Program-made: the position numbers and the translations under genes | The notes under the pieces: model-generated | What the model saw: only the letters and a program-made list of their open reading frames with translations | What the model was told of the DNA's origin: nothing | Databases searched by the model: none | Shown here: positions 4,187 to 21,706 of the stretch, piece after piece | Numbering within the stretch: the first letter of the stretch is position 1 | How the letters are laid out: each line of letters begins with the position of its first letter | DNA from: Verrucomicrobiota bacterium | GTDB lineage: Bacteria > Verrucomicrobiota > Verrucomicrobiia > Opitutales > Coraliomargaritaceae | Direction of reading: 5' to 3' | DNA length: 24,000 nt | NCBI GenBank assembly: GCA_039815375.1 | Contig: JBCBZJ010000013.1 | Span: 56,957-80,956 of the forward strand

Positions 4187-6220
4187 ATGTCTGATTCTGA
4201 AAAGACGATTGCCGACTTAAAGATTAGGCTGGCCGCAAGGGAGGCCGAGTTGCGGCTTCTCAGATCTCAATTTGAAGAACTTGAGCAAAATGTCGGTTCG
4301 ACCACTTCCGTGGAGTCGGATCTGATGCATGAAATTCAATTTGACGGGGCCAAACTCGCATCCGTCGGTGCCTGGAATCACAATTTGGAGACCGATCGAA
4401 TCCATTGGACTGAAGAGGTTTTTAAAATCCATGCGATCGAGCCGGGCTCGGTTCCACCCCATGAGGAGTGTCTAGCGTTCTATTCGAAGAAAGATCGGGC
4501 CCGGGTTGCGGCGGCAGTAAAAAAGCTGGCAGAGGAATCAGAACCTTATGACATGGAGTGTGACTTCATTGATGCTAAGGGCGCGCATCGGTTTGTTCAT
4601 ATAAAAGGGCAGGTCCACAGTAGCAAAGATGGCAAACCAACCGCCCTTTCAGGTATAATCCAAGACATTACAAATCAATATGTCATGAAGCGCGGGATGG
4701 AAGCATTCTTCACGCTGACACCTGATTTAATTGGTGCGATCGACTATGATTCCCGCCCGGTTACGTTGAGTCCTTCTTGGCAGAGTTTGCTTGGATGGAC
4801 TCAGCATGAAATGATTCACATGGGCGTAGACTGCGTGGTTCATGAGAAAGACAGACAGCCGATGGGAGTGGTGTTCAAACGCGCGATCGCTTCAGGTAAA
4901 ATTGAGTCTCTCGAAAACCGTGTCGTCTCAAAGGAAGGAGAAGAGTATTGGTATTCATGGCGTCTTTTTGCCGATCCGTCGACCGAGCTGGTTTTTATTG
5001 CTGCGCGCGATCTCACTCGACAGAAAAATACAGAGAAAGCACTGAAAGATGCAAAGATTCAGTCGGAGGCGGCGAATCAGGCTAAGTCCGACTTTCTTGC
5101 CATCATGAGTCATGAACTGCGCACGCCACTGAATCCGATCCTGGGCTTTGCAGATCTGTTATTGTCGGAGCTGGAAGACCCCGAGCATCTGGAGATCCTG
5201 GACGCAATCAGCTGTGCGGGACAATGTTTGACCACTGTGATCGGTGACGTGCTTGATTTCGCTAAGATTGAATCGGGCAATGTTCAGCTCTCTGAGGATA
5301 CCTTCGATCTCCAAGTAATACTCGAAAAGAGTCTGAGGTTAATGGAAGGGCAGATAAAAGTTAAGCCGGTCAAGCTTTCGATGAATTTCGAAAAGTCAGC
5401 GGATATTCCTGACGACTGTCGCTTTATCGGGGACTCCGATAAGATTTCACAGGTTCTTTTCAATCTGCTTGATAACGCGATAAAGTTTACTGAGAAGGGT
5501 TCGGTGGTGCTTGACAGTTCTCTTGTAACGACGGGCGACGGTCGGGTGCTCTGCCATGTCGAGGTGCGCGACACCGGCATTGGTATCGCGGAGAGCTCAC
5601 AAGAGACGATCTTTCAACCTTTCATCATGGGTGATAGTTCTTCGACCCGACGCTATGGCGGGACAGGCTTGGGCTTGGCGATTAGCAAAAAGCTGGTCGA
5701 ACTGATGGGCGGAACGATTAGCGCTAAAAGTGTGCTCAACAAGGGCACCTGCATGTCTTTCACGCTGCCTTTGAAATTGGAGAGGCTGGCTTCTCAGATA
5801 CCGAAGTTGAGTGAAGGTGTTTCCGAGATTTTCATTGAAGGTAAGCATCACGTTTTGTTGGTGGAGGATAATGCCACTAATATTTTTTATATTCGTAGAC
5901 TGATGGAGCGCATGGGTTGCGAGGTCACGAGTGTAGCAAGTGGAGAAGAAGCTATGGCCGAGTATAAGCCCGGTCTGTATGATCTGTTACTGTTGGATAT
6001 TCACATGCCGGGAATGAGCGGTGTAGATGTGTTGCGGGACATACGAGAGGATGAAGCTCAATATGGATTCACCAAGTTACCGATTGTGATGCTTACTGCC
6101 GACGTTCTTCCTGCAACGCGCCAGCAATGCATGAAGTATGGTGCCGACGGTTTTCTGATCAAGCCGGTCCGGGCGCAGGAGTTGTTCGATGCGGTCAGTC
6201 TAGTGCTTGAGAGCAATTGA
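4187..6220 (+). CDS. cytoplasmic hybrid sensor histidine kinase / response regulator (coiled coil, 2 PAS, HisKA, HATPase, REC)
   Basis: 677 aa with no TM segment. It has an N-terminal coiled coil (LKIRLAAREAELRLLRSQFEELEQ) and PAS-like WNHNLETDRIHWTEEVFKIH. Kinase motifs are the H-box SDFLAIMSHELRTPLNPILGF, N-box LFNLLDNAIKFT, G1 VRDTGIGI and G2 GGTGLGLAISKKLV. The C-terminal receiver is VLLVEDNATN...LLLLDIHMPGMSG...FLIKP. Confidence 0.9.
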   Translation: MSDSEKTIADLKIRLAAREAELRLLRSQFEELEQNVGSTTSVESDLMHEIQFDGAKLASVGAWNHNLETDRIHWTEEVFKIHAIEPGSVPPHEECLAFYSKKDRARVAAAVKKLAEESEPYDMECDFIDAKGAHRFVHIKGQVHSSKDGKPTALSGIIQDITNQYVMKRGMEAFFTLTPDLIGAIDYDSRPVTLSPSWQSLLGWTQHEMIHMGVDCVVHEKDRQPMGVVFKRAIASGKIESLENRVVSKEGEEYWYSWRLFADPSTELVFIAARDLTRQKNTEKALKDAKIQSEAANQAKSDFLAIMSHELRTPLNPILGFADLLLSELEDPEHLEILDAISCAGQCLTTVIGDVLDFAKIESGNVQLSEDTFDLQVILEKSLRLMEGQIKVKPVKLSMNFEKSADIPDDCRFIGDSDKISQVLFNLLDNAIKFTEKGSVVLDSSLVTTGDGRVLCHVEVRDTGIGIAESSQETIFQPFIMGDSSSTRRYGGTGLGLAISKKLVELMGGTISAKSVLNKGTCMSFTLPLKLERLASQIPKLSEGVSEIFIEGKHHVLLVEDNATNIFYIRRLMERMGCEVTSVASGEEAMAEYKPGLYDLLLLDIHMPGMSGVDVLRDIREDEAQYGFTKLPIVMLTADVLPATRQQCMKYGADGFLIKPVRAQELFDAVSLVLESN

Positions 6221-10138: not shown

Positions 10139-10576
10139 TTAATCGATCCGCCTTGAGCTTACGATCCGCCAGGCTCCGTCTGTTCGTTGCCCAATACTGA
10201 AGAGGCTGATAAAATTGTCTTCGGTCTCGTAGATGACTCGCATACGCAGTTTTGGTTCAAGGCTAGGGCCGTAGCTTCGGCCTTCGTATTCGAAGCCAAT
10301 GTTCTCTTCTGGTGCACCAGATAAGGGTTCGAACTGTATTGTTCGAATAGGCAGCCCCAGCTCGCTTTGAAGAACCGGTTTCAGGAGTTGCCGCGTGATG
10401 GCATCGGTTCCCTCTAAATGGTATAGATCAAGCATGGCATTGATCGAATCTGCCTGATTGGCTTCTTCAAAAGCTTCAGCCAGTTGCCGTAAGCCTGCCT
10501 TGTCTGGGAAACTCGGGCTGCATGCAGACAGTGCGAAGGTGATGCAGCAAAGCGCTAGGCGCACTACGCTAGCCAT
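10139..10576 (-). CDS. hypothetical lipoprotein
   Basis: 145 aa with signal peptide plus lipobox LALCCITFALSAC. Its start ATG shares one base with the upstream stop (TAATG at 10578-10574). No family was recognised. Confidence 0.6.
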   Translation of the reverse strand: MASVVRLALCCITFALSACSPSFPDKAGLRQLAEAFEEANQADSINAMLDLYHLEGTDAITRQLLKPVLQSELGLPIRTIQFEPLSGAPEENIGFEYEGRSYGPSLEPKLRMRVIYETEDNFISLFSIGQRTDGAWRIVSSRRID

Positions 10577-11124
10577 TACAGGATCTTGGATTGCCCGTTC
10601 TCCGGTTCCGTGGGCTCGGTCTCATCAAGAGAGAGCTCTTCCGGCTCTGTGATCGAATCTTCGATGGCCGGGTCTTTTTTCTTTAGAGCGCTGCTTTGTT
10701 CGATGCGGCCGCTCTTAAATCCCGTTGCGACAATATTGATACGTCCCAGATTTTCGATCCCGAGGTTCTCGCTCAGTGCTTTACGCAAGTGCGCCTGGAG
10801 CGTCTCCTCGATGCTCCTGAGGTGTGCTCCACTGGCCAACTTCAAGCGCACTTCGAAATGTGTTTTGTTGCTCTTCGCGTTAACGCTGACTTGTGGTTTA
10901 CTGACTTCGCTGATCTGTTCACAGGAGGTTTGTACCAGTTCGATGATAGCGGAGCGTCCGACCATGACTTGACCGTTCGCAGTGGAGTAGGCCATGACAT
11001 TCTTTGGCTGCCTGCGCACGAGCAGGAAAAGCAGTAGCGCGAGGACGAGAACTACCGACCCGATGTAGAGGTATTCGGTTTCTGCAAGATGATTGATGCT
11101 ATTAAAAAACTCCATCCATTCCAT
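10576..11124 (-). CDS. membrane-anchored Asp23-partner protein (AmaP-like)
   Basis: 182 aa with a single N-terminal TM (YLYIGSVVLVLALLLFLLV). This is followed by an Asp23-like pattern (GQVMVGRSAIIELVQTSCEQISEV...FEVRLKLASGAHLRSIEETLQAHLRKAL) and an acidic tail. It sits immediately downstream of the Asp23 gene, as amaP does in Firmicutes. The assignment rests on architecture and context, not on a search. Confidence 0.5.
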   Translation of the reverse strand: MEWMEFFNSINHLAETEYLYIGSVVLVLALLLFLLVRRQPKNVMAYSTANGQVMVGRSAIIELVQTSCEQISEVSKPQVSVNAKSNKTHFEVRLKLASGAHLRSIEETLQAHLRKALSENLGIENLGRINIVATGFKSGRIEQSSALKKKDPAIEDSITEPEELSLDETEPTEPENGQSKIL

Positions 11125-11147
11125 CTCGCTCTATCTTGTCTCGGGGA

Positions 11148-11591
11148 TTAGTCTGTGTGAGCTTCGTCGTTCCAGTCTTCGCTCTCTTTACTCTCTTCGT
11201 CGGTGCGAACCCCATCGATCACAACGTTTACCTGAGAGACATTCTTACTGGTCATTTTTTCGACCTGTTCGGCAATACGCTGCTGAATTTGAGTTGCGAC
11301 TGAGGCGAGTTCTACGCCGAAGCGTAATATGACGCGAATCTCGATTCGATAGTCGCCAACTTCGTCTTCTTCGACGCGGACGCCACGCTCATCACCCTTC
11401 TTGGAGAAAATTTCAGCGATCCCGTCGACAAATCCACCGCCTACTGCCGCGACGCCGGCGACTTCAAGTGCAGCAAGACGGACGATACTGGCAACGACGC
11501 TATGGTTGATGCGAATATCGCCAAGCGTATTAGAGTCTTCAGATACAGTTGGGATGGAAGACTCGTTCTGGTTTTCAGTTTCCTTACTCAT
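11148..11591 (-). CDS. Asp23/Gls24-family envelope stress protein
   Basis: 147 aa: [27 protein letters not shown]...[44 protein letters not shown]...VNVVIDGV. This is the canonical Asp23 (DUF322) pattern. Confidence 0.85.
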
Positions 11592-13644: not shown

Positions 13645-14721
13645 ATGCCTAAGTGCAGCTTCGAAGGAATTAGAGTCGGTGGGGTCGTGACCTGTGTGCC
13701 CCAGCGTGAGCGTTGTATTGATGAAGAGGTCGAGCTTTTCGGCGGAAATGAGAAGCAAATTGCCCGTCTTAAGAAGACGATTGGTTTGGATCGCCGTCGT
13801 GTGGTTGATGATTCTACGACGGCTGCTGACCTTTGCGAAGCGGCAGCAAGAAGGCTACTGCCAGCATGTGATCTGGAATCTTCGGATATTGATGCGGTCA
13901 TTTGCGTGACACAGACCCCCGACTACCCTCAACCTTGCAATGCTGCTGTCTTGCATGGGAAACTGGGACTACCCAAGAATTGTGCCGCACTTGATGTGAA
14001 CCTTGGTTGCTCGGGCTATGTATATGGTTTGTGGTTGGCCTTCATGATGATCAGCTCTGGAGGGTGCAAGCGCGTCTTGTTGCTCGCTGGAGATACGATA
14101 AGTCGCCTGGTTAATAAACGGGACCGTTCTGTTGCGTCACTTTTTGGGGATGGCGGCAGCGCTACCATGATAGAGCAGTCTGATGGTGCAGGGACCTCAT
14201 GGATGAGCATGGATACAGATGGCACCGGGTTTGACCGTCTAATCGTTCCCGCTGGAGGGGCACGTCACCCGCACTCTGCCGAAACCCATCTCGAAGCTGA
14301 GGATGATGCCGGTAACCTTAGGTCCAAAGAGAATCTCTTTATGGATGGTGCCGAGGTTTTTAATTTTTCGATCAGCGAGGAACCCAAGGCAGTGTCCGAT
14401 CTTTTAGACTTTGCGGGAATCGAAATAGACGACGTTGATCACTTTGTTTTTCATCAGGCTAACCGTTATATCCTTTCAAATATTGCAAAGCGATTAGAGA
14501 TTGATCCAGCTAAAGTTCCGATGCGAACGGTGGAACGTTTTGGCAATCAAAGTTCGGCGTCGATACCTTCGGCACTATGTTCTGAGCTTGGCGACCTTTT
14601 GAGCTTGGATGCGGGGCGGCAGGTTTTGCTTTCTGGTTTTGGAGTTGGCTTGTCCTGGGCAACGGCATTGCTTCCGATCTCGAGTCTTAGAGTGTGCGAG
14701 GTTATCGATTACAAAGCTTGA
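13645..14721 (+). CDS. 3-oxoacyl-ACP synthase III (KASIII/FabH)-like condensing enzyme, non-canonical subfamily
   Basis: 358 aa. The Cys-His-Asn triad contexts are all present: [21 protein letters not shown] and [11 protein letters not shown] (canonical FabH has GNTSAAS here). It is not adjacent to other fab genes. Confidence 0.85.
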
Positions 14722-14769
14722 ACTTCTTCGGTTGCTTCTCGCTTATCGCTAATCCATTTTCTTTAGGAT

Positions 14770-15006
14770 ATGGAATTGGAACAGTTTATTCGTGATTTTG
14801 AGGCGGCAATTGAGGATCTGCCCGTGGGCAGCCTTACTGCAGAATCGCATTTCCGTAAATTAGAGCAATGGGACTCTCTTGCAGTGCTGACTGTTATTGC
14901 TATGGCCAATAGTGAGTACGGCTTTGCTCTTAAAGCGCGCGACTTGAAGCGCTTTGATACCGTGGAAGCGTTATTCGCTTTTATTGAATCATCACAGAAC
15001 CCATGA
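14770..15006 (+). CDS. acyl carrier protein (phosphopantetheine-binding)
   Basis: 78 aa acidic helical protein with the Ser attachment motif in LEQWDSLAVLTVIAM. Its stop overlaps the next gene's start (ATGA at 15003-15006). Confidence 0.75.
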   Translation: MELEQFIRDFEAAIEDLPVGSLTAESHFRKLEQWDSLAVLTVIAMANSEYGFALKARDLKRFDTVEALFAFIESSQNP

Positions 15007-15635
15007 AGCGCTTGATCATTGTTGGTGCCGGAGGTTTTGGTCGCGAAGTCTACGCATGGGCCAAGGATCATAAGGACTGCGGCACACTATGGGAGGTGGT
15101 TGGTTTTCTGGATGATGACCCATTTGCGCTCAATGCATTTGAATACCCGGTTGGTATTCTGGGTTCCATTGATACTTATGTAATCGGACCAGACGACATT
15201 TTCTTGTGTGCAATCGGTTCGCCAAAAGTAAAAAAGGTTGTTGTCGGTCGTATGCTGGCCAGAGGAGCAGATTTTATGACTTTGGTTCATCCTACAGTGG
15301 TCGTCGGTGAAAATGTTATGATTGCTGTTGGGACGATCGTTTGTCCGGGCGCGGTCATCACCTGTGATATTACAATCGGTCGATTTGTTGCGGTGAACTG
15401 CCTAAGCAGTATCGGACACGATGTGAAGGTGGGTGACTGGGCAACCATTAGTGGTCATTGTGACTTGACCGGAAAGTCCTCGATAGGCGAGGGCAGTTTT
15501 TTAGGGAGCGGTTCACGTATCCTGCCCGGAAAATCGGTAGGATCAGAAGCACTTGTGGGTGCGGGGTCAGTCGTTCTTAATTCGGTTTCGGATGGAAAAA
15601 AGGTATTCGGCAACCCGGCGCAGCCATTCTCCTAG
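15003..15635 (+). CDS. NeuD/PglD-family sugar N/O-acyltransferase (left-handed beta-helix, hexapeptide repeats)
   Basis: 210 aa. The N-terminal Rossmann-like segment MKRLIIVGAGGFGREVYAWA...VVGFLDDDP is typical of the NeuD/PglD family. The C-terminal hexapeptide repeats are IGENV, IGRFV, VGDWA, IGEGS, LGSGS and VGAGS. Confidence 0.85.
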   Translation: MKRLIIVGAGGFGREVYAWAKDHKDCGTLWEVVGFLDDDPFALNAFEYPVGILGSIDTYVIGPDDIFLCAIGSPKVKKVVVGRMLARGADFMTLVHPTVVVGENVMIAVGTIVCPGAVITCDITIGRFVAVNCLSSIGHDVKVGDWATISGHCDLTGKSSIGEGSFLGSGSRILPGKSVGSEALVGAGSVVLNSVSDGKKVFGNPAQPFS

Positions 15636-16330
15636 TTTTCAGGGAGGCTGCCGGGCTTTTCGAGGCCGATTTCTGCCAGTCCATCGAGAAGAGTTTGAAA
15701 ACCCTCCATACCTTTAAGTTCTTCGATCATTTTGTTGCTTGATAGGCGAATGAAAAACTGTTCCTGCCTCAAATTTAGACCGTGCTTTTGGATATCAATC
15801 AAGGCGCCGAATATATTGTGTCCGCCCTTTTGGTCATATCCAAATGCGACTCCGCCGACCAAGTGCCAAAAGTAAACATTTTCAACATTACCGTTTTTCT
15901 CGAATATCCCAAATTCAGCAGGTTGAAAATCTGCCGATGCCGAGTTGAACGGTATACCGTATTCACGGTCTAAACGAGTCCATCCGTTTTGAACCCAGCA
16001 AGTATCTGGTGTGTGTGCACCGGCCCAGCGATAGGAGGCTTTTCCTGGTGTCCAATAGGCAATGTATAGACTTACGATAGTGTCGCTTTTCTGAAAAACG
16101 CGGAATAAGGAGTCATCAAATTTGAGAAAATCGCTGACTCGAGCCGCTGCTTCCGGTGAGTTCGACATTTTCATATCACGCACTTTCCACCCTTTTAATT
16201 CTGAAGGAAAAAGATCGGATAGTTGATCTTGCAGTGTCGCTGTTGGCGGCAAGGTGAAAACAAAATAAGCCCTGAGTCCCAGGGATGCGGCCAGAATTGC
16301 GAACGCGACGACAAGAAGAATCTTTTTCAT
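15632..16330 (-). CDS. EpsI-family (exosortase-associated, DUF3485-like) protein
   Basis: N-terminal TM MKKILLVVAFAILAASLGL, then FPSELKGWKVRDM...VSLYIAYWTPGK...GAHTPDTCWVQNGW...VYFWHLVGG...FFIRLSS. This matches my memory of the EpsI pattern (lgGW.g.d, LyiAYy, H.P..C.pg.GW, v.YW). I prefer the ATG at 16330 over the GTG at 16357. Confidence 0.7.
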   Translation of the reverse strand: MKKILLVVAFAILAASLGLRAYFVFTLPPTATLQDQLSDLFPSELKGWKVRDMKMSNSPEAAARVSDFLKFDDSLFRVFQKSDTIVSLYIAYWTPGKASYRWAGAHTPDTCWVQNGWTRLDREYGIPFNSASADFQPAEFGIFEKNGNVENVYFWHLVGGVAFGYDQKGGHNIFGALIDIQKHGLNLRQEQFFIRLSSNKMIEELKGMEGFQTLLDGLAEIGLEKPGSLPEN

Positions 16331-16461
16331 TTTGCACCCACGATGTGACCACACCACTTTTACGTCAATACTCTGAGGGACTTAAGATTGCCTGTGGTCA
16401 GAAAATATGCGTTTCCTCTCTATACGCTTCCAATATCGCAAATATTTTCGATCAATAGATT
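16331..16461. promoter_or_regulatory. divergent intergenic region (EpsI-like gene / Wzy_C-TPR operon promoters presumed)
   Basis: 131-bp AT-rich gap between divergent starts. It contains the near-palindrome CGCAAATATTTTCG at 16437-16450. Confidence 0.3.
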
Positions 16462-18414
16462 ATGCCCTCCTTAATTGATAGGTCTGGTAATGTCCAATTT
16501 TTTGGTCAGCTATCTTGGGCTAATTTCCTCGATTGGCTGATTACCTTATGCCTTGCCGCTATTCTAGTGATTACTTCTCTCCAGCTGGGCGGTGTTCGGC
16601 CGGAGACTCAGCATTCTGTTCTGCCACTGTATGCTATCCTTCTCTTGCTCCATGGTCTTTGGATCGCCATTGATAAGGAAAGGCCTCGCCGGATTAGTCC
16701 AGGTCCGGTCCTTTTTTTACCCTTCCTTATTTTCGCGTCGCTCAGCTTTTACTTTTTAAGCCCGGTTCCCTGGCGCGCATCTTATGAATTAACCTATTTC
16801 TTTGGCATATTCATATTTATTTGGGTCGCAGTAAATAACGTGCGGAGTCGAGCGCATTTATTGATTTTGATACTTATGGCGCTGATTCCGGCAGGGAGTG
16901 CATCTCTTATCGGTTTTTACCAGTTTTTCCAGGACTCCACTCAGGTAGCGAGTGCATCGGTCGGTTATGCATTGGAATTGAATCAACAGTACTTTGGAAG
17001 GGCTACAGGTATTTTCGCTGATCCAAATAGCTTCGCCGCCTACCTTCTTGCTCTTTTGCCCTGTTTTATAATAGCGGCCCTTGTGCCCCGGCTCCCGATC
17101 ATCTTAAGAGTGCTTTGTTTTTATGTGGGTCTAGTTCTGCTGGCAGGTATTACCTTTACGCAAACATATTGGGCTGCCGCTTCGGTCGTCATTTTGATGG
17201 CTATCTTGCCCTGGTTTTGTTTCAAAAAAAAGTCCTTACGGGTGCTTTCTTCCATGCTGGTAGTTGGTTCGGCTCTGGTGGTCTTCCTGTTGATGTTTCT
17301 GGTAAGCCCATCATTTCAACGTGGTTTCGCGCGTGCGCTGAGCACGGATGGCGAAGCTGTAAGAATTGTTTTATGGCAAGAGGGCCTTCGTAGTCTATCG
17401 CGAAGTCCTTTCCTTGGCTCAGGTGGAGGCACCTATGCTTTTCAACTAGATCATAGTGACTCTCTCTCAATTCCTTATGGTCCTGTAACGCCGCAAAATG
17501 ATTACATGCTTATTTTGGGGCAATATGGGTTACTTGGTGGAGCTCTTTTGTTCGTGCCTGGCTTTTACCTGATTTTAAGAGCTTACCTACGCTGGAAATC
17601 TGAGGCATTTGACAGAAAGCTAAAGGGGCAGCGCGAGAGGGTGATGTCACCACAGAAGTTTTTTCTTTCAATTGCGACTAGCGGAATTCTGGCTCTTCTC
17701 ATTGCGGCCTTTTTTACTTCTGTGCTTTATATTCCGGGGTTGCTGCTCTTTGGAGCCCTGCTCTTTTCTGTCCTAGTTAAGCTCAGCTTCAGTCGCACTC
17801 TGAACCTGCCGAATTTTCGTTTTGCAGGCCTGTCTTATTTGTCTATCGCCGCATTGTTTGGTGTAGTTTTCTGGATAAATTCCAGCTCTAGTATTGAATC
17901 CCAAGCATACGAGTTACGGGCTCGGCAGAGCCTTAATAAACTTGTGGAAAAGCGGGTTCCCATCTCAGGCAATATTGAGCTAATCGAAAATACCATTCAT
18001 AGGTTCAAAGATGCTGTAGTTATCGACCCGAACAATGCTGACGCTTGGATTGGTCTGAGCTCAGCGATTTGCCAGCTTTACTACAGTAGGCCTGAAGAAT
18101 TTGAAGCAATCGCGTCTCGTGCCGTCTCGGCTGCGTCCCGTGCCTACGAGATATGTCCGGAATATTGGCTATCATCAGCGCAGTTGGGTATTGCCCTTGC
18201 ACTGGGCGGAGAGCTCGAAGACGCTCGCTCTGCGCTGGAACGCTCTGTAGCAATGGCGCCAAACAGCAGTAATGCACATTATTATCTGGCTTCTTACCTT
18301 AGCGTTTTTCCGGAAGAGAGGGAGGGCGCGATTGAGCACGTCGGCCTGTCGCTTGAGATTAATCCGCGTAATGCGGCGGCTTTAAAACTGCAGCGTAAAC
18401 TTTTGATTCTTTAG
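16462..18414 (+). CDS. O-antigen ligase/polymerase-like (Wzy_C) polytopic membrane protein fused to C-terminal TPR repeats
   Basis: 650 aa with about 10-12 hydrophobic helices. Wzy_C-like loop and helix segments are GRATGIFADPNSFAAYLLALLP and PQNDYMLILGQYGLLGG. The C-terminal soluble ~180 aa carries TPR-like repeats (NADAWIGLSSAICQLY..., EYWLSSAQLGIALALGGELEDARSALERSVAMAPNSSNAHYYLASYL). Confidence 0.8.
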   Translation: MPSLIDRSGNVQFFGQLSWANFLDWLITLCLAAILVITSLQLGGVRPETQHSVLPLYAILLLLHGLWIAIDKERPRRISPGPVLFLPFLIFASLSFYFLSPVPWRASYELTYFFGIFIFIWVAVNNVRSRAHLLILILMALIPAGSASLIGFYQFFQDSTQVASASVGYALELNQQYFGRATGIFADPNSFAAYLLALLPCFIIAALVPRLPIILRVLCFYVGLVLLAGITFTQTYWAAASVVILMAILPWFCFKKKSLRVLSSMLVVGSALVVFLLMFLVSPSFQRGFARALSTDGEAVRIVLWQEGLRSLSRSPFLGSGGGTYAFQLDHSDSLSIPYGPVTPQNDYMLILGQYGLLGGALLFVPGFYLILRAYLRWKSEAFDRKLKGQRERVMSPQKFFLSIATSGILALLIAAFFTSVLYIPGLLLFGALLFSVLVKLSFSRTLNLPNFRFAGLSYLSIAALFGVVFWINSSSSIESQAYELRARQSLNKLVEKRVPISGNIELIENTIHRFKDAVVIDPNNADAWIGLSSAICQLYYSRPEEFEAIASRAVSAASRAYEICPEYWLSSAQLGIALALGGELEDARSALERSVAMAPNSSNAHYYLASYLSVFPEEREGAIEHVGLSLEINPRNAAALKLQRKLLIL

Positions 18415-18417
18415 GAA

Positions 18418-19323
18418 ATGAACCGGGATTGGATCTTATTGCTTTTTCTTCTGATTTTAAGGCCGTTTGATGTAGGTGCAGAAACCACATTTCGAGGCTC
18501 GGTAGCTGTCTTGGAAGCCAGCCCGAAAGTTCATTTGTCAGTTCTTGGCTACGAGGGCAGTTCGTTTACACCAGTCGCCTTGCCACAATACCTCCCTGGT
18601 TTGTTTTCGGCTACTGGAACTCAGGAAGATTACCTCTTTCTGCGCACTTCGAACCGAATGAATCTCTTTTTTGAGGGAGCTGGTTTTTTCGCCGTGGAAC
18701 GCTTTGAATATGTAGCAGAATCCGATCCGTCGGTGAGCGAAGAACTAAAGGTGCTCCAGAGCCGGATGATATTGAATTTGCGGAAAGGTCTACTCTTGGT
18801 GGATTGTGTTGAACTTTGCGAGGAATCTCAACTTTTTGTTGAGGCACCATTCGGTCAGGTCGCCGGTTCCGGGGCTAAATGGTTTATAGAGATTGCATTA
18901 GATCCGCGCAGCGGGATTTACGGTTTTACCATTGCCTGCCAAGAGGGTCTGGTTCGTTTGACTGACCTGAGAGGCGAGGTCTATTTGATCTATCCGGGGC
19001 AGCGTCTGGCCGGTGCGGGCAGTTCGAGTGCGCCGGCAATCGAGGTCGGCGAGCCTACCGATCATTCGCGTCAACTCTTCAAGAATTTTGAGGAACTGTT
19101 AATGAAGCACGACATGACTAAGCTCGACCATGCAGCATTGCGTCAACAGATGCTGGTGCTGGGGGAATCTACCGCTGCAGAATCGGCTCTTACGGATGAT
19201 TCAGGTGCTCCGAAATCTAACAAGCGCCCTGTTGTTATTGAGTTTTCGCCTCGTGCACCGGAATTGACTCCTTTTCGCGGTGAGGTGTGCCCGCCTTCCG
19301 ATGCCCAAGTGGATTTATTTTAG
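18418..19323 (+). CDS. secreted protein, FecR-like beta-sandwich domain (tentative)
   Basis: 301 aa with signal peptide MNRDWILLLFLLILRPFDVGA. The alternating-strand pattern YLFLRTSNRMNLFFEGAGFFAVE...ILNLRKGLLLVD...LFVEAPFGQVAGSGAKWFIEI...CQEGLVRLTDLRGEVYLIYPGQ fits the FecR-domain layout by eye. It starts 3 bp after the upstream stop and overlaps the cyclase start. Confidence 0.5.
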   Translation: MNRDWILLLFLLILRPFDVGAETTFRGSVAVLEASPKVHLSVLGYEGSSFTPVALPQYLPGLFSATGTQEDYLFLRTSNRMNLFFEGAGFFAVERFEYVAESDPSVSEELKVLQSRMILNLRKGLLLVDCVELCEESQLFVEAPFGQVAGSGAKWFIEIALDPRSGIYGFTIACQEGLVRLTDLRGEVYLIYPGQRLAGAGSSSAPAIEVGEPTDHSRQLFKNFEELLMKHDMTKLDHAALRQQMLVLGESTAAESALTDDSGAPKSNKRPVVIEFSPRAPELTPFRGEVCPPSDAQVDLF

Positions 19324-21706
19324 AAAATTGAAAGGATTGAAGCAATCTGGCCTTTACGCTTTGCTGGTCCTGGCTTCATCGGCAGTTTGGATTGTATTGG
19401 GCAGCTCTGGGCTCTTGGACGGTATTGATCAGGAGGTCATGAGATGGCGCTATCTTGCGAGGGGTGAGATTGAGACGAAAGACAACATCGTCTATGTCGA
19501 TCTGGATGCTGAAACCGTTTCTTATATGGGGCATCGGCCGTGGGATCGCAGAGAGTTTGGCCGCGTTCTCGCAGCTCTTTTGGGTCCGGGTGGAGCCAGA
19601 ACCGTGGCGGTTGATATCATCTTTTCAAAGTATGGTGCGAGCACGATGCTTGATCTGGATCGTGCACGAAAAGGGGACTTCTTTTTGGGGCAAATAGTAG
19701 AAAAGTATAAGGATAAAGTGGTCTTGGCTGCAGCCTATACAGGAGTGATTAATACTCTGGCTGCTGAGAGTGCCGACAGGCTGCCGCTGATTCGGGATGG
19801 CAACTACGATCCCGAAACGAACACTTTTCCTGAGGCACCAACGTTCCCGATTATTAATCTCGATGTCGGGCGTTTGGGAATAGCGAATGTTGATGAGGCA
19901 CTGAGTCGGGGGCCGATTCCCCTCTTTGTTCCCGCATTTATCGAGTTTGATAGCCCTCGTTACAGTTTTTTGCTGATGGATGGTTTAACCCGCCATTTCA
20001 GCTTAGTCCTGAATGAGGAGCTCAGGCCGGCCGTTTTAGGGGATCAAGTTACCATCCAAAGTAGTGATGGTTGGTTTAGCAAGCAGCTGCCTCTAAATAC
20101 CAAGACGACGCTTTTTAGCTTAGGTTTGGAGGCTTTTCTTGTTGCGCATGGTCTCGGACGAACAGCGGTTGAGTTCGAAGGCAGTACGCTGTCGATTCGC
20201 ATGAGCGAAGAAGAAACCATACGTATACCATTGGTTCAGTCACAGTCGATTGAAGTGAATTGGTTCGAAGGTTGGGATACGAGTCAGGGCAATGAAAGAG
20301 TAAGTATGCGCGAGGTTCTGGAACGAGCTGATGCGCTGGCAAAGGCTGCAAATGCGAACGATACTTCTACCCTCAAAACTTTGCGCGAGTGGTTTAGCCA
20401 ATTCAATGATAAGGTCATCTTTCTTGGGCCGGTTGACCCTCAGTTGAAAGATATTGCTCCGACACCATTCAATCGAGTGCCTGTTCCTAAGGTGTTGCTG
20501 CATGCCAATGTTTTTCGCACGATTGAGTCCGGCGAGTTTATTCTGAGAGTATCATCTTTGGTCTCCGCTCTGAGTGTTCTTCTGCTTACTGTTGGGGTTG
20601 CATGTTTGGCCCTTGGTAATCGATGGTTACGGATTTGTTCAGTAGGCGTCTTTATCGGCTACATCGGATTCGTATTTGTGGTTTTTTCCTCTTCGAATCT
20701 AGTCCTTCCTCTCGTCTCGCCTGTAGGTTCTGCCCTCACCGCAACCATTTTTGTTATTCTGATCCGTATTGGTTCCGAAGAGTGGCAGCGTCGTCGTATT
20801 AAGAATCTATTCGGTGCTTACGTCTCTCCAAGCTTGGTTAATGATATGGTCGAATCCCATCGAGACCCTGAGCTTGGCGGAACAGAAGCTGAGGTGACGG
20901 CCCTTTTTTCCGATGTCGAGGGGTTTTCTTCGCTTTCGGAAGAGTTGAAGCCGAACGAACTGGTCGCTCTTATGAACGAATATCTCGGTGAAATGACTGA
21001 GACTTTTCAGGCGGAACAAGGCACCCTGGACAAGTATATCGGCGATGCCATTGTGACGATGTTTGGCATGCCCTATCCGGTTGACGATCATGCTGCGCGT
21101 GCCTGTCGATCAGCACTCGCTATGCAAGAACGCCATGCTGCACTTCGAGAACAATGGAGGGAAGATGGCAAGTGGCCGGAAAAGGTGCTGCAGATGCGCA
21201 CTCGAATCGGTATCAACACCGGGGTTGCTGTTATCGGGAACATGGGAAGTGAAATGCGTTTCAACTACACAATGATGGGGGATTCGGTAAACCTCGCTGC
21301 TCGATGCGAAAGTGGGGCAAAGAGCTACGGAGTGTATACCATGGTCACGGCGTCGACGCTCGAGGCTGCTTTGCGGGAGAACCTGGAATTGCACTATCGC
21401 AAGTTGGATCGTGTTGTCGTTAAAGGTCGGAGTCGGCCGGTTGAAATCTACGAGCTATGGGATGCCTCCTATGATTTAACGAAGGCTCGATCTTGTCGTG
21501 CGAAGTATGAGCAAGCGCTTCAAGCGTATTTCGACGGCGATTGGGAAAATGCGCTTTTGGGCTTCGAAGCGTCTTCAGCTGATGAGCCCGGTCAGGAGTT
21601 TGCGCCAATCACGCCATCTGAACTTCTCGCGGAACGTTGCCGAGAGTTCATTAAGAACGGCTCTCCGGAGAATTGGGATGGCGTCTACCGGATGAAAACG
21701 AAATAA
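19301..21706 (+). CDS. CHASE2 sensor domain-containing class III adenylate cyclase
   Basis: N-terminal TM (GLYALLVLASSAVWIVLG), a ~380 aa extracytoplasmic CHASE2-type region (IVYVDLDAETV...VAVDIIFS), then 3 TM helices. The cyclase core is ALFSDVEGFSSLSE...LDKYIGDAIVTMFG...RIGINTGVAVIGNMGS...NYTMMGDSVNLAARCES. I prefer the ATG at 19301 (MPKWIYFRKL) over the GTG at 19280. Confidence 0.9.
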   Translation: MPKWIYFRKLKGLKQSGLYALLVLASSAVWIVLGSSGLLDGIDQEVMRWRYLARGEIETKDNIVYVDLDAETVSYMGHRPWDRREFGRVLAALLGPGGARTVAVDIIFSKYGASTMLDLDRARKGDFFLGQIVEKYKDKVVLAAAYTGVINTLAAESADRLPLIRDGNYDPETNTFPEAPTFPIINLDVGRLGIANVDEALSRGPIPLFVPAFIEFDSPRYSFLLMDGLTRHFSLVLNEELRPAVLGDQVTIQSSDGWFSKQLPLNTKTTLFSLGLEAFLVAHGLGRTAVEFEGSTLSIRMSEEETIRIPLVQSQSIEVNWFEGWDTSQGNERVSMREVLERADALAKAANANDTSTLKTLREWFSQFNDKVIFLGPVDPQLKDIAPTPFNRVPVPKVLLHANVFRTIESGEFILRVSSLVSALSVLLLTVGVACLALGNRWLRICSVGVFIGYIGFVFVVFSSSNLVLPLVSPVGSALTATIFVILIRIGSEEWQRRRIKNLFGAYVSPSLVNDMVESHRDPELGGTEAEVTALFSDVEGFSSLSEELKPNELVALMNEYLGEMTETFQAEQGTLDKYIGDAIVTMFGMPYPVDDHAARACRSALAMQERHAALREQWREDGKWPEKVLQMRTRIGINTGVAVIGNMGSEMRFNYTMMGDSVNLAARCESGAKSYGVYTMVTASTLEAALRENLELHYRKLDRVVVKGRSRPVEIYELWDASYDLTKARSCRAKYEQALQAYFDGDWENALLGFEASSADEPGQEFAPITPSELLAERCREFIKNGSPENWDGVYRMKTK

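Follow-up and report, generated by a model that had tools for sequence, protein, structure and literature searches.

A lineage-specific, modular locus of Opitutales built on an invariant Wzy_C-TPR/FecR gene pair: a candidate for envelope-glycoconjugate assembly with a dispensable CHASE2 cyclase

We analysed a block of seven genes at positions 13645-21706 of a 24,000-nucleotide (nt) stretch of DNA (the window) from a Verrucomicrobiota metagenome-assembled genome (MAG) of the order Opitutales (NCBI proteins MEO0510104-109). The block is modular, as seen directly in its domain identities, gene order and pattern of conservation and loss. A membrane protein of the WaaL/Wzy_C superfamily with C-terminal TPR repeats (Wzy_C-TPR) and a secreted FecR-like protein form an invariant core, usually joined by an EpsI-family protein, by a species-variable cassette for N-acylation dependent on an acyl carrier protein (ACP), and optionally by a CHASE2 adenylate cyclase. 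Our favoured explanation, held tentatively and at somewhat less than an even chance, is that this is a lineage-specific, chromosomally fixed locus for the ligation or assembly of an envelope glycoconjugate, with an attached, dispensable cyclic AMP (cAMP) sensor. The initial annotation had read the seven genes as an accessory island for envelope modification and cAMP signalling. Its gene calls and the co-localisation of the genes stood up to analysis, and part of the block stays together through local rearrangements; the notions of an island and of cAMP control found no support, and the block is not an obligate system. Every component comes from a known family, and the cyclase part is a known pairing.

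A scan of one genome per GTDB species yielded 69 loci, all from Opitutales, besides two spurious partial matches (L075 and L076). The carriers are marine (Coraliomargarita, Lentimonas, Thalassobacterium and relatives), and in about 70 species-level genomes the site lies between accB and rhodanese/kdsB. For the co-occurrence counts, the window proteins were compared by tblastn against all 76 loci. The 83 full-length homologues of Wzy_C-TPR, about 650 amino acids (aa) long and 39-65% identical, come without exception from sources in Coraliomargarita, Lentimonas, Puniceicoccaceae or Opitutales. With 68 Wzy_C-TPR orthologues arranged in a neighbour-joining tree and minimum changes counted by Fitch parsimony, the FecR-like gene stood directly downstream of Wzy_C-TPR in all 66 assessable loci with zero changes; in annotated loci the two genes are spaced by -4 to +25 nt. 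EpsI was found in 59 of 67 assessable loci (absent in 8; at least four changes), the acyltransferase in 43 of 59 (absent in 16; at least seven), the KASIII condensing enzyme in 34 of 59 (absent in 25; at least six) and the cyclase in 44 of 64 (absent in 20; at least 11); in 40 loci the FecR-like gene stood beside, and in the same orientation as, a cyclase gene with full CHASE2. With cyclase, acyltransferase, KASIII and EpsI all variably absent, the block is not a single obligate seven-gene system. At the same time, its three transcription units are co-localised in related genomes, as the proposed linkage would predict, and the same seven-gene order from accB to rhodanese/kdsB occurs in Coraliomargarita sp. 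W4R53, C. algicola, a JGI metagenome contig and GCA_002919055, where Wzy_C-TPR is 39-50% identical.

All seven long open reading frames (ORFs) lie where the initial annotation had placed them. None is a chance ORF, since each is long and six of the seven have a significant family match, the 301-aa FecR-like protein being identified through fold and profile searches. Profile searches agreed with the domains named, including an acyl supply made of KASIII and a hexapeptide transferase (Pfam and NCBIfam), and, at Pfam thresholds, reassigned neither EpsI nor Wzy_C to another family. Family matches on either side likewise agreed with the flanks: to the left of the block are accC/accB and an Asp23 cluster, and to its right rhodanese/kdsB. 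The plus/minus/plus layout, giving three units on alternating strands, was also correct.

The core gene at 16462-18414 (plus strand) encodes Wzy_C-TPR, which matches Wzy_C at 51.2 bits (cut-off 31.7) and C-terminal TPR families in Pfam. A profile of its N-terminal 480 aa matches C. metallidurans WaaL (7tpg; E 8.7e-8) across the periplasmic loop, with GVRLvlW aligned to GVRLKIW of 7tpg and P-[H]-N-D aligned to A-H-N-D. Hydropathy indicates about 13 hydrophobic segments, taken as transmembrane helices, and a 57-residue loop at 291-347. From hydropathy and the positive-inside rule, the TPR domain (residues 479-650) would be periplasmic, the compartment also predicted for the FecR-like protein, the EpsI domain and CHASE2. 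Among the 68 orthologues, R210 and R216 are kept in 67, R260 in 62, R301 (which aligns with the Arg of GVRLKIW) in 64 and D347 in 66, and G319, G321 and G323 of a GxGxG loop are invariant; the conserved arginines may form a pocket that binds undecaprenyl diphosphate. The window protein passes no NCBIfam ligase model and has no match to TIGR03097 at E<0.01.

Its partner, encoded at 18418-19323 (plus strand), is a 301-aa protein for which Pfam, NCBIfam and PDB sequence searches found nothing; neither it nor any of 21 orthologues matches Pfam FecR (PF04773), even at E up to 1. An AlphaFold model built from an alignment of 21 homologues (mean pLDDT 80.8) has a beta-sandwich whose sole significant PDB neighbours in Foldseek are FecR-type periplasmic domains, those of PupR (6ovk; E 3.9e-5) and BDI_1681 (4m0n at E 2.6e-4, and 4m0h), with matches spanning E 4e-5 to 6e-4, at probability 1.00. 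A profile search of 1.84 billion representatives returned 80 full-length relatives at E<1e-30 and a weaker tail, and PF04773 is present in 41 of 51 of the weaker, distant relatives. Fold and intermediate sequences thus identify the protein, at the superfamily level, as a divergent FecR domain, bearing out the earlier call of a FecR-like secreted protein although the Pfam model itself is unmatched. The predicted layout is a signal peptide, a beta domain (about residues 22-211), a linker that is helical and then disordered and rich in Ser, Ala and Pro, and a C-terminal tail. The tail is strongly conserved and ends in TPFRGEV.PPS..Q.DLF, with P285, F286 and F301 invariant (window 19140-19323 covers the last 60 residues, including the low-confidence linker); it resembles a peptide for docking or a site of modification.

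Upstream, three plus-strand genes make up the acyl-supply cassette. The KASIII (FabH-like) condensing enzyme (13645-14721), a variable member, matches ACP_syn_III and ACP_syn_III_C in Pfam (E 1e-20 to 1e-25) and keeps the Cys-His-Asn motifs GCSG, HQAN and GNQSSAS. Its top NCBIfam match is PRK12880 (282 bits, under the 436 cut-off), and its nearest solved relatives are 4efi and 3gwa. The dedicated ACP (14770-15006) scores 27.8 bits against PP-binding (cut-off 20.8) and keeps the serine of the DSL motif in WDSLAVL; in related loci, ACP always accompanies KASIII or the acyltransferase. The stop of the ACP gene overlaps by 4 nt the start of the third gene (15003-15635), a nucleotide-amino-sugar N-acyltransferase of the NeuD/PglB/VioB family that passes the curated cut-off of TIGR03570 (188.3 bits against 160.8) and contains PglD_N and Hexapep (left-handed beta-helix) domains. 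Its best solved relative, over the full length, is VioB (7txp; E 1e-34), followed by the PglB acetyltransferase domain (4m98), PerB (4ea7) and PglD, all of which use nucleotide-linked 4-amino sugars; the substrate here is likewise predicted to be a nucleotide-linked amino sugar, made outside the locus. Judging by these families, the likeliest chemistry is that 3-oxoacyl-ACP is made and then passed to the amino sugar. Related loci carry four versions of the cassette, some with extra short-chain dehydrogenases/reductases (SDRs) and an AMP-ligase, and where the SDRs are FabG-like the acyl unit would be reduced to 3-hydroxyacyl. In C. sinensis, EpsI and a PglD-type gene are inverted and KASIII and ACP are missing, and a second acyltransferase version, roughly 30% identical, stands on the opposite strand in eight loci.

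The last gene, the optional module, is an ORF at 19280-21706 (plus strand) that overlaps or abuts the FecR-like gene on the same strand. Orthologues of 789-796 aa place the probable start of translation at ATG 19301 or TTG 19328. The protein scores above cut-off for CHASE2 (95 bits) and Guanylate_cyc (86 bits) in Pfam, and hydropathy places membrane segments on both sides of a stretch of about 370 aa predicted to be periplasmic. The class III cyclase motifs with the metal Asp, Lys/Thr, Asn and Arg can be read in the translation (FSDVEGF, DKYIGDA and YTMMGDSVNLAAR); the Lys/Thr pattern points to specificity for ATP, and we take the enzyme to be a class IIIb adenylate cyclase. The gene is being lost by decay in some species, to judge from short out-of-frame fragments left between the FecR-like gene and rhodanese (L025:3509-3864 and L056:12955-13137). 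In a deep clade (L065/66/69/70/72), the FecR-like gene is followed immediately by a membrane cyclase of 456 aa that has the catalytic domain only and no CHASE2 (L065:12783-14153).

These observations can be assembled into a tentative mechanism, in which we infer the topology, the docking of the tail on the TPR domain, the substrate, the direction of signalling and the coupling of the acyl cassette to the core. The WaaL-like inner-membrane protein would bind an undecaprenyl-diphosphate-linked glycan in its Arg-rich pocket and expose its TPR domain in the periplasm. The FecR-domain protein, co-translated with it and secreted, would dock on the TPR domain, most likely through the C-terminal tail, and serve as adaptor or acceptor. 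EpsI, divergently transcribed, would be the usual membrane-anchored, periplasmic companion of this core. In the cytoplasm, the VioB/PglD-type transferase would N-acylate a nucleotide-linked amino sugar with an acyl unit from the dedicated ACP, which in this genome KASIII would load with a 3-oxoacyl, probably acetoacetyl, unit; other species would use reductases and an AMP-ligase as well, or do without the ACP route, and the acyl decoration would differ between species because the make-up of the cassette varies. Where the CHASE2 cyclase is present, the FecR-domain protein would be its periplasmic partner, as in other FecR/CHASE2 pairs, and the cyclase would turn an envelope- or glycan-related cue into cAMP, an output dispensable for core function.

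Several results weigh against this explanation. WaaL and PglL require the His of the H-N-x-x-L motif, and the window protein has Q345 in that catalytic-His column, which is unexpected for an active ligase. The column holds His in 50 of 68 orthologues (74%) and Q, E, L, S, M, Y or A in the other 18 (26%), a variability that argues for a different chemistry or a non-catalytic role. With the His replaced in so many orthologues, this one included, a simple ligase reading is weakened; the Wzy_C domain, the polytopic build, the large periplasmic loop and the arginines agree with the original description as an O-antigen-ligase-like/TPR fusion, but the catalytic-His column does not. The block and its immediate surroundings, in the window and in the annotated related loci, contain no glycosyltransferase, flippase, aminotransferase or dehydratase, so the glycan pathway is hypothetical. 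The modules form three transcription units and have been lost independently of one another, and no relative outside Opitutales that could test the association independently appeared in the genome scan. The accBC and rhodanese/kdsB genes hold their positions about as often as the block genes do; because these housekeeping flanks are equally conserved, adjacency within the clade is weak functional evidence and may simply reflect a slow pace of genome rearrangement. The informative evidence is confined to the rearranged loci and the operonic spacing. Finally, in S. meliloti the FecR-domain protein is dispensable for signal perception by CHASE2 cyclases (PMC5498481).

The strongest alternative, though an unlikely one, is that the linkage is synteny only: the three units would be unrelated, with the cassette decorating a lipopolysaccharide or capsule sugar, EpsI serving an exosortase elsewhere, and Wzy_C-TPR, FecR-like protein and cyclase forming a separate module. 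Three units on alternating strands, the independent losses of cassette, EpsI and cyclase, flanks that are presumably unrelated and yet hold position as strongly as the block, and the restriction to one clade all fit this alternative, as does the frequency of exosortases and PEP-CTERM proteins in Verrucomicrobia (PMC4960237, PMC1569441). The rearranged loci argue the other way. EpsI stays beside Wzy_C-TPR in two lineages that have independently lost accBC and the acyl cassette from the left flank (L028/32/34/36 and L029/39/46); in L032, for example, the left flank is replaced by an ABC-transporter/GldG-like operon and EpsI is kept, and in a sub-lineage EpsI was then deleted with Wzy_C-TPR kept (L042 compared with L032). 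The acyltransferase occurs together with EpsI in 42 of 43 loci (a hand tally of the state table), and the one exception, L040, is a mobile-element disruption in which a phage-type integrase of 502 aa (L040:605-2113) occupies the KASIII site and EpsI is missing. Moreover, the two genes are swapped as a pair: an alternative EpsI/acyltransferase cassette on inverted strands, about 34% and 25-30% identical and still matching DUF3485 and TIGR03570, appears at several separate places in the tree, which suggests cassette exchange. C. parva retains a longer cassette (AMP-ligase, SDR, small ORF, KASIII, ACP, SDR and acyltransferase), followed by EpsI, Wzy_C-TPR and the FecR-like gene, although no cyclase, rhodanese or kdsB is nearby. 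If the units were unrelated after all, the finding would be an ordinary conserved-synteny neighbourhood.

EpsI, the usual companion of the core, is encoded at 15632-16330 on the minus strand (ORF to 16357). Its start is probably ATG 16330 rather than GTG 16357, in line with homologues and with the 232-aa NCBI product, annotated as an exosortase-associated EpsI family protein. The protein, predicted to be anchored in the membrane by its N-terminus and to have its domain in the periplasm, passes PF11984 (DUF3485) in Pfam at 54.1 bits (cut-off 26.1). It is the best-conserved protein of the block, with 65-79% identity among the 120 homologues listed. The segment YIAYWTPGKASYRWAGAHTPDTCW (residues about 91-113; window 15990-16060) does not vary, and the alternative type, at 34% identity, retains the His-x-Pro-Asp-x-Cys-Trp core of that segment (H..P-D-x-C-W); the segment could be an active or binding site. 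An AlphaFold2 model (pLDDT 74.8) has no significant neighbour in the PDB; the best, the Eag chaperone SciW and DcrB, stay at a non-significant E of 0.014-0.04, and we did not build on them. EpsI proteins are defined as fused to or adjoining an exosortase (EpsH), and their function is not known (PMC1569441). Here, the neighbours of EpsI are instead the acyltransferase and Wzy_C-TPR, both in the window and in about 59 related loci.

On a second alternative account, which we consider improbable, the block would be a fragment or derivative of a PEP-CTERM/exosortase system, in which EpsI, the Wzy_C ligase-like protein and the ACP supply serve an exosortase elsewhere to glycosylate or acylate sorted surface proteins. 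Exosortase A loci do carry ACP and acyl-ligase genes, and several matches point the same way: the EpsI family match itself, with the C-terminal domain of exosortase XrtD as the top NCBIfam match and XrtW and the typed EpsI models also among the best; a weak match of the AMP-ligase of the long cassette to TIGR03098; and, in one clade member, a single NCBIfam match of Wzy_C-TPR, to TIGR03097 (exosortase-A-associated O-glycosylation ligase), but at 34.5 bits against a cut-off of 188. The exosortase-system models score far under their cut-offs: EpsI reaches 32.5 bits for TIGR02914 (cut-off 42.8) and about 30 bits for the typed models V and B (cut-offs about 220), and the window Wzy_C-TPR does not reach TIGR03097 at all. 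In addition, some species have deleted EpsI yet kept Wzy_C-TPR. No Exosortase_EpsH was found in the window, in about 8 kb beyond its left edge or in the seven related loci with annotation, the rest of the genomes not having been scanned. The absence of an exosortase that had been noted therefore holds for these regions, and "orphan" EpsI is unproven as a statement about the genome, since exosortase systems and PEP-CTERM proteins occur widely among Verrucomicrobia (PMC4960237, PMC1569441). A literature search for EpsI structure, Wzy_C-TPR fusions and exosortases in Coraliomargarita found nothing relevant.

We give no better chance to a third alternative, in which Wzy_C-TPR is a non-enzymatic sensor or scaffold that binds the undecaprenyl-diphosphate-linked glycan, or another envelope intermediate, and reports with FecR to the CHASE2 cyclase or another output. 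A His column that varies while the arginines and the GxGxG loop are conserved is what such a protein might show; the FecR pairing is invariant, FecR domains being periplasmic protein-protein signalling modules, the pair shares an operon with the cyclase in two thirds of species, and glycan-synthesis genes are lacking nearby. Against this, the remaining third of species have no cyclase and the locus encodes no other output, the His is still present in most orthologues, and the adjoining acyltransferase cassette is easier to explain by real glycan chemistry. We also know of no non-catalytic sensor in the WaaL family. Least probable of all is a combined version, in which the Wzy_C-TPR/FecR pair, rather than a conventional ligase, would be a receptor facing the periplasm for an undecaprenyl-linked envelope glycan with species-specific acylation, EpsI would act with it independently of exosortases and FecR would signal to the CHASE2 cyclase.

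Were that receptor version true, CHASE2/FecR pairs would for the first time have a candidate class of ligands and a candidate partner, and EpsI a role independent of exosortases. CHASE2 sensors with FecR-domain neighbours are widespread, and we know of no signal for them; the tighter association of FecR with the WaaL-like TPR protein than with the cyclase raises the idea that the assembly of envelope glycans may be what such pairs sense. An acyl cassette that varies between species suggests variable surface decoration, maybe relevant to recognition by phages or grazers. The clade (Coraliomargarita and Lentimonas) includes cultivable marine polysaccharide degraders, which makes genetics feasible.

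Returning to the favoured assembly locus, its designation as an island of accessory genes did not hold. A mobile or genomic island was rejected on the grounds of the fixed, vertically inherited chromosomal site in about 60 species-level genomes, the small GC dip (48.8% in the block against 51.7%) and the lack of an integrase or other mobility genes in the window; the only integrase seen is the one that disrupts L040. Third-position GC is 0.44-0.50 in the block and mostly 0.50-0.64 in the flanking housekeeping genes, a lower value that is compatible with low expression rather than foreign origin. Two contigs with this Opitutales-type locus (L031 and L068) are labelled as Polaribacter sp. and Yoonia sp. 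MAGs and are probably mis-binned.

Control of the locus by cAMP also found no support. Neither divergent intergenic region contains a CRP-type site (TGTGA-N6-TCACA-like), matches across the window are at or under chance, and the locus contains no regulator gene, whether of the Crp/Clr or of the response-regulator type; cAMP-CRP control of these genes was therefore set aside. Alignment of 65 upstream regions revealed a semi-conserved motif, AATATGnGT-TTACC, in the divergent region between EpsI and Wzy_C-TPR (16404-16416, plus strand). It lies 45-60 nt upstream of the Wzy_C-TPR start codon, has an equivalent site in about 60 related loci, including those with the alternative EpsI cassette, and could be the promoter of the core operon or an operator there; no consensus of the sigma-70 or CRP type is reported at it. 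Promoter- and terminator-like sites occur at counts within about 1 to 2.5 standard deviations of those of shuffled sequence, with none at operon boundaries, and an Rfam scan of the block found no structured RNA at gathering score.

Two further features of the window lie outside the block. Beside accBC, window 10139-11591 holds an Asp23-family gene and two small ORFs (145 and 182 aa) with no family match; the Asp23 gene, with one or both of the small ORFs, is found again beside accBC in annotated related genomes, as a cluster unrelated to the locus. Further left, a hybrid PAS-PAS histidine kinase/receiver gene (window 4187-6220) stands between TP_methylase and QueF, a position it does not have in C. 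sinensis.

Compared with known systems, the locus resembles each of four in part. It shares with PEP-CTERM/exosortase (EpsH-EpsI) exopolysaccharide loci (PMC1569441) an EpsI-family protein, a Wzy_C-type "O-glycosylation ligase-like" gene and an ACP nearby, with AMP-ligase genes in sister species. It differs from them in having no adjacent or fused exosortase and no PrsK/PrsR/PrsT genes, in that every exosortase-system model stays under its cut-off, and in an acyl supply made of KASIII and a hexapeptide transferase. With WaaL (7tpg) and the wider Wzy_C superfamily (PglL/PilO and some Wzy polymerases), the core protein has in common a Wzy_C domain above the Pfam threshold and, with 7tpg, the conserved GVRL..W arginine and H-N-D motif region. 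Unlike WaaL, it has an additional transmembrane helix, a putatively periplasmic TPR domain of 170 residues and a catalytic His that is replaced in about a quarter of orthologues, the window protein among them; its gene forms an obligate operon with that of a FecR-domain protein, and it matches no NCBIfam ligase model at the cut-off. The cassette is reminiscent of ACP-dependent N-acylation of O-antigen amino sugars, of which the rfbKLMNO tetronate cassette of V. cholerae O1 is an example, and of VioB, PglD and PerB: a dedicated ACP and acyl-forming enzymes stand beside a beta-helix N-acyltransferase of the PglD/VioB family. Here, however, the condensing enzyme is a KASIII, the locus contains neither amino-sugar synthesis genes nor glycosyltransferases, and the make-up of the cassette differs between sister species.

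The initial annotation had stated that no characterised system shows this combination of genes. This remains true of the invariant coupling between a FecR-domain protein and a WaaL-like TPR protein, of which we know no description. The pairing of FecR with CHASE2, on the other hand, is already documented (PMC5498481, PMC5192318). In S. meliloti, the genes clr, cyaD1 (a CHASE2 adenylate cyclase), smc02177 (FecR domain) and smc02178 stand together, and cAMP drives succinoglycan synthesis in a pathway in which a TPR protein also acts (PMC5498481); in the Burkholderia "BiofilmReg" operon and in P. aeruginosa PA4035/PA4036, a LysM-FecR protein is paired with a CHASE2 histidine kinase and affects biofilm (PMC5192318). 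As in both of these, a secreted or periplasmic FecR-domain protein is encoded here beside a membrane protein with a periplasmic CHASE2 domain, and as in S. meliloti, where the cAMP pathway controls an exopolysaccharide and involves a TPR protein, the output is a class III adenylate cyclase. The Opitutales version departs from these pairs in lacking a Crp/Clr-type or response regulator in the locus, in a FecR domain too divergent for Pfam that has no LysM and carries a conserved C-terminal tail, and, above all, in tying its FecR more tightly to Wzy_C-TPR (66 of 66 loci) than to the cyclase (44 of 64).

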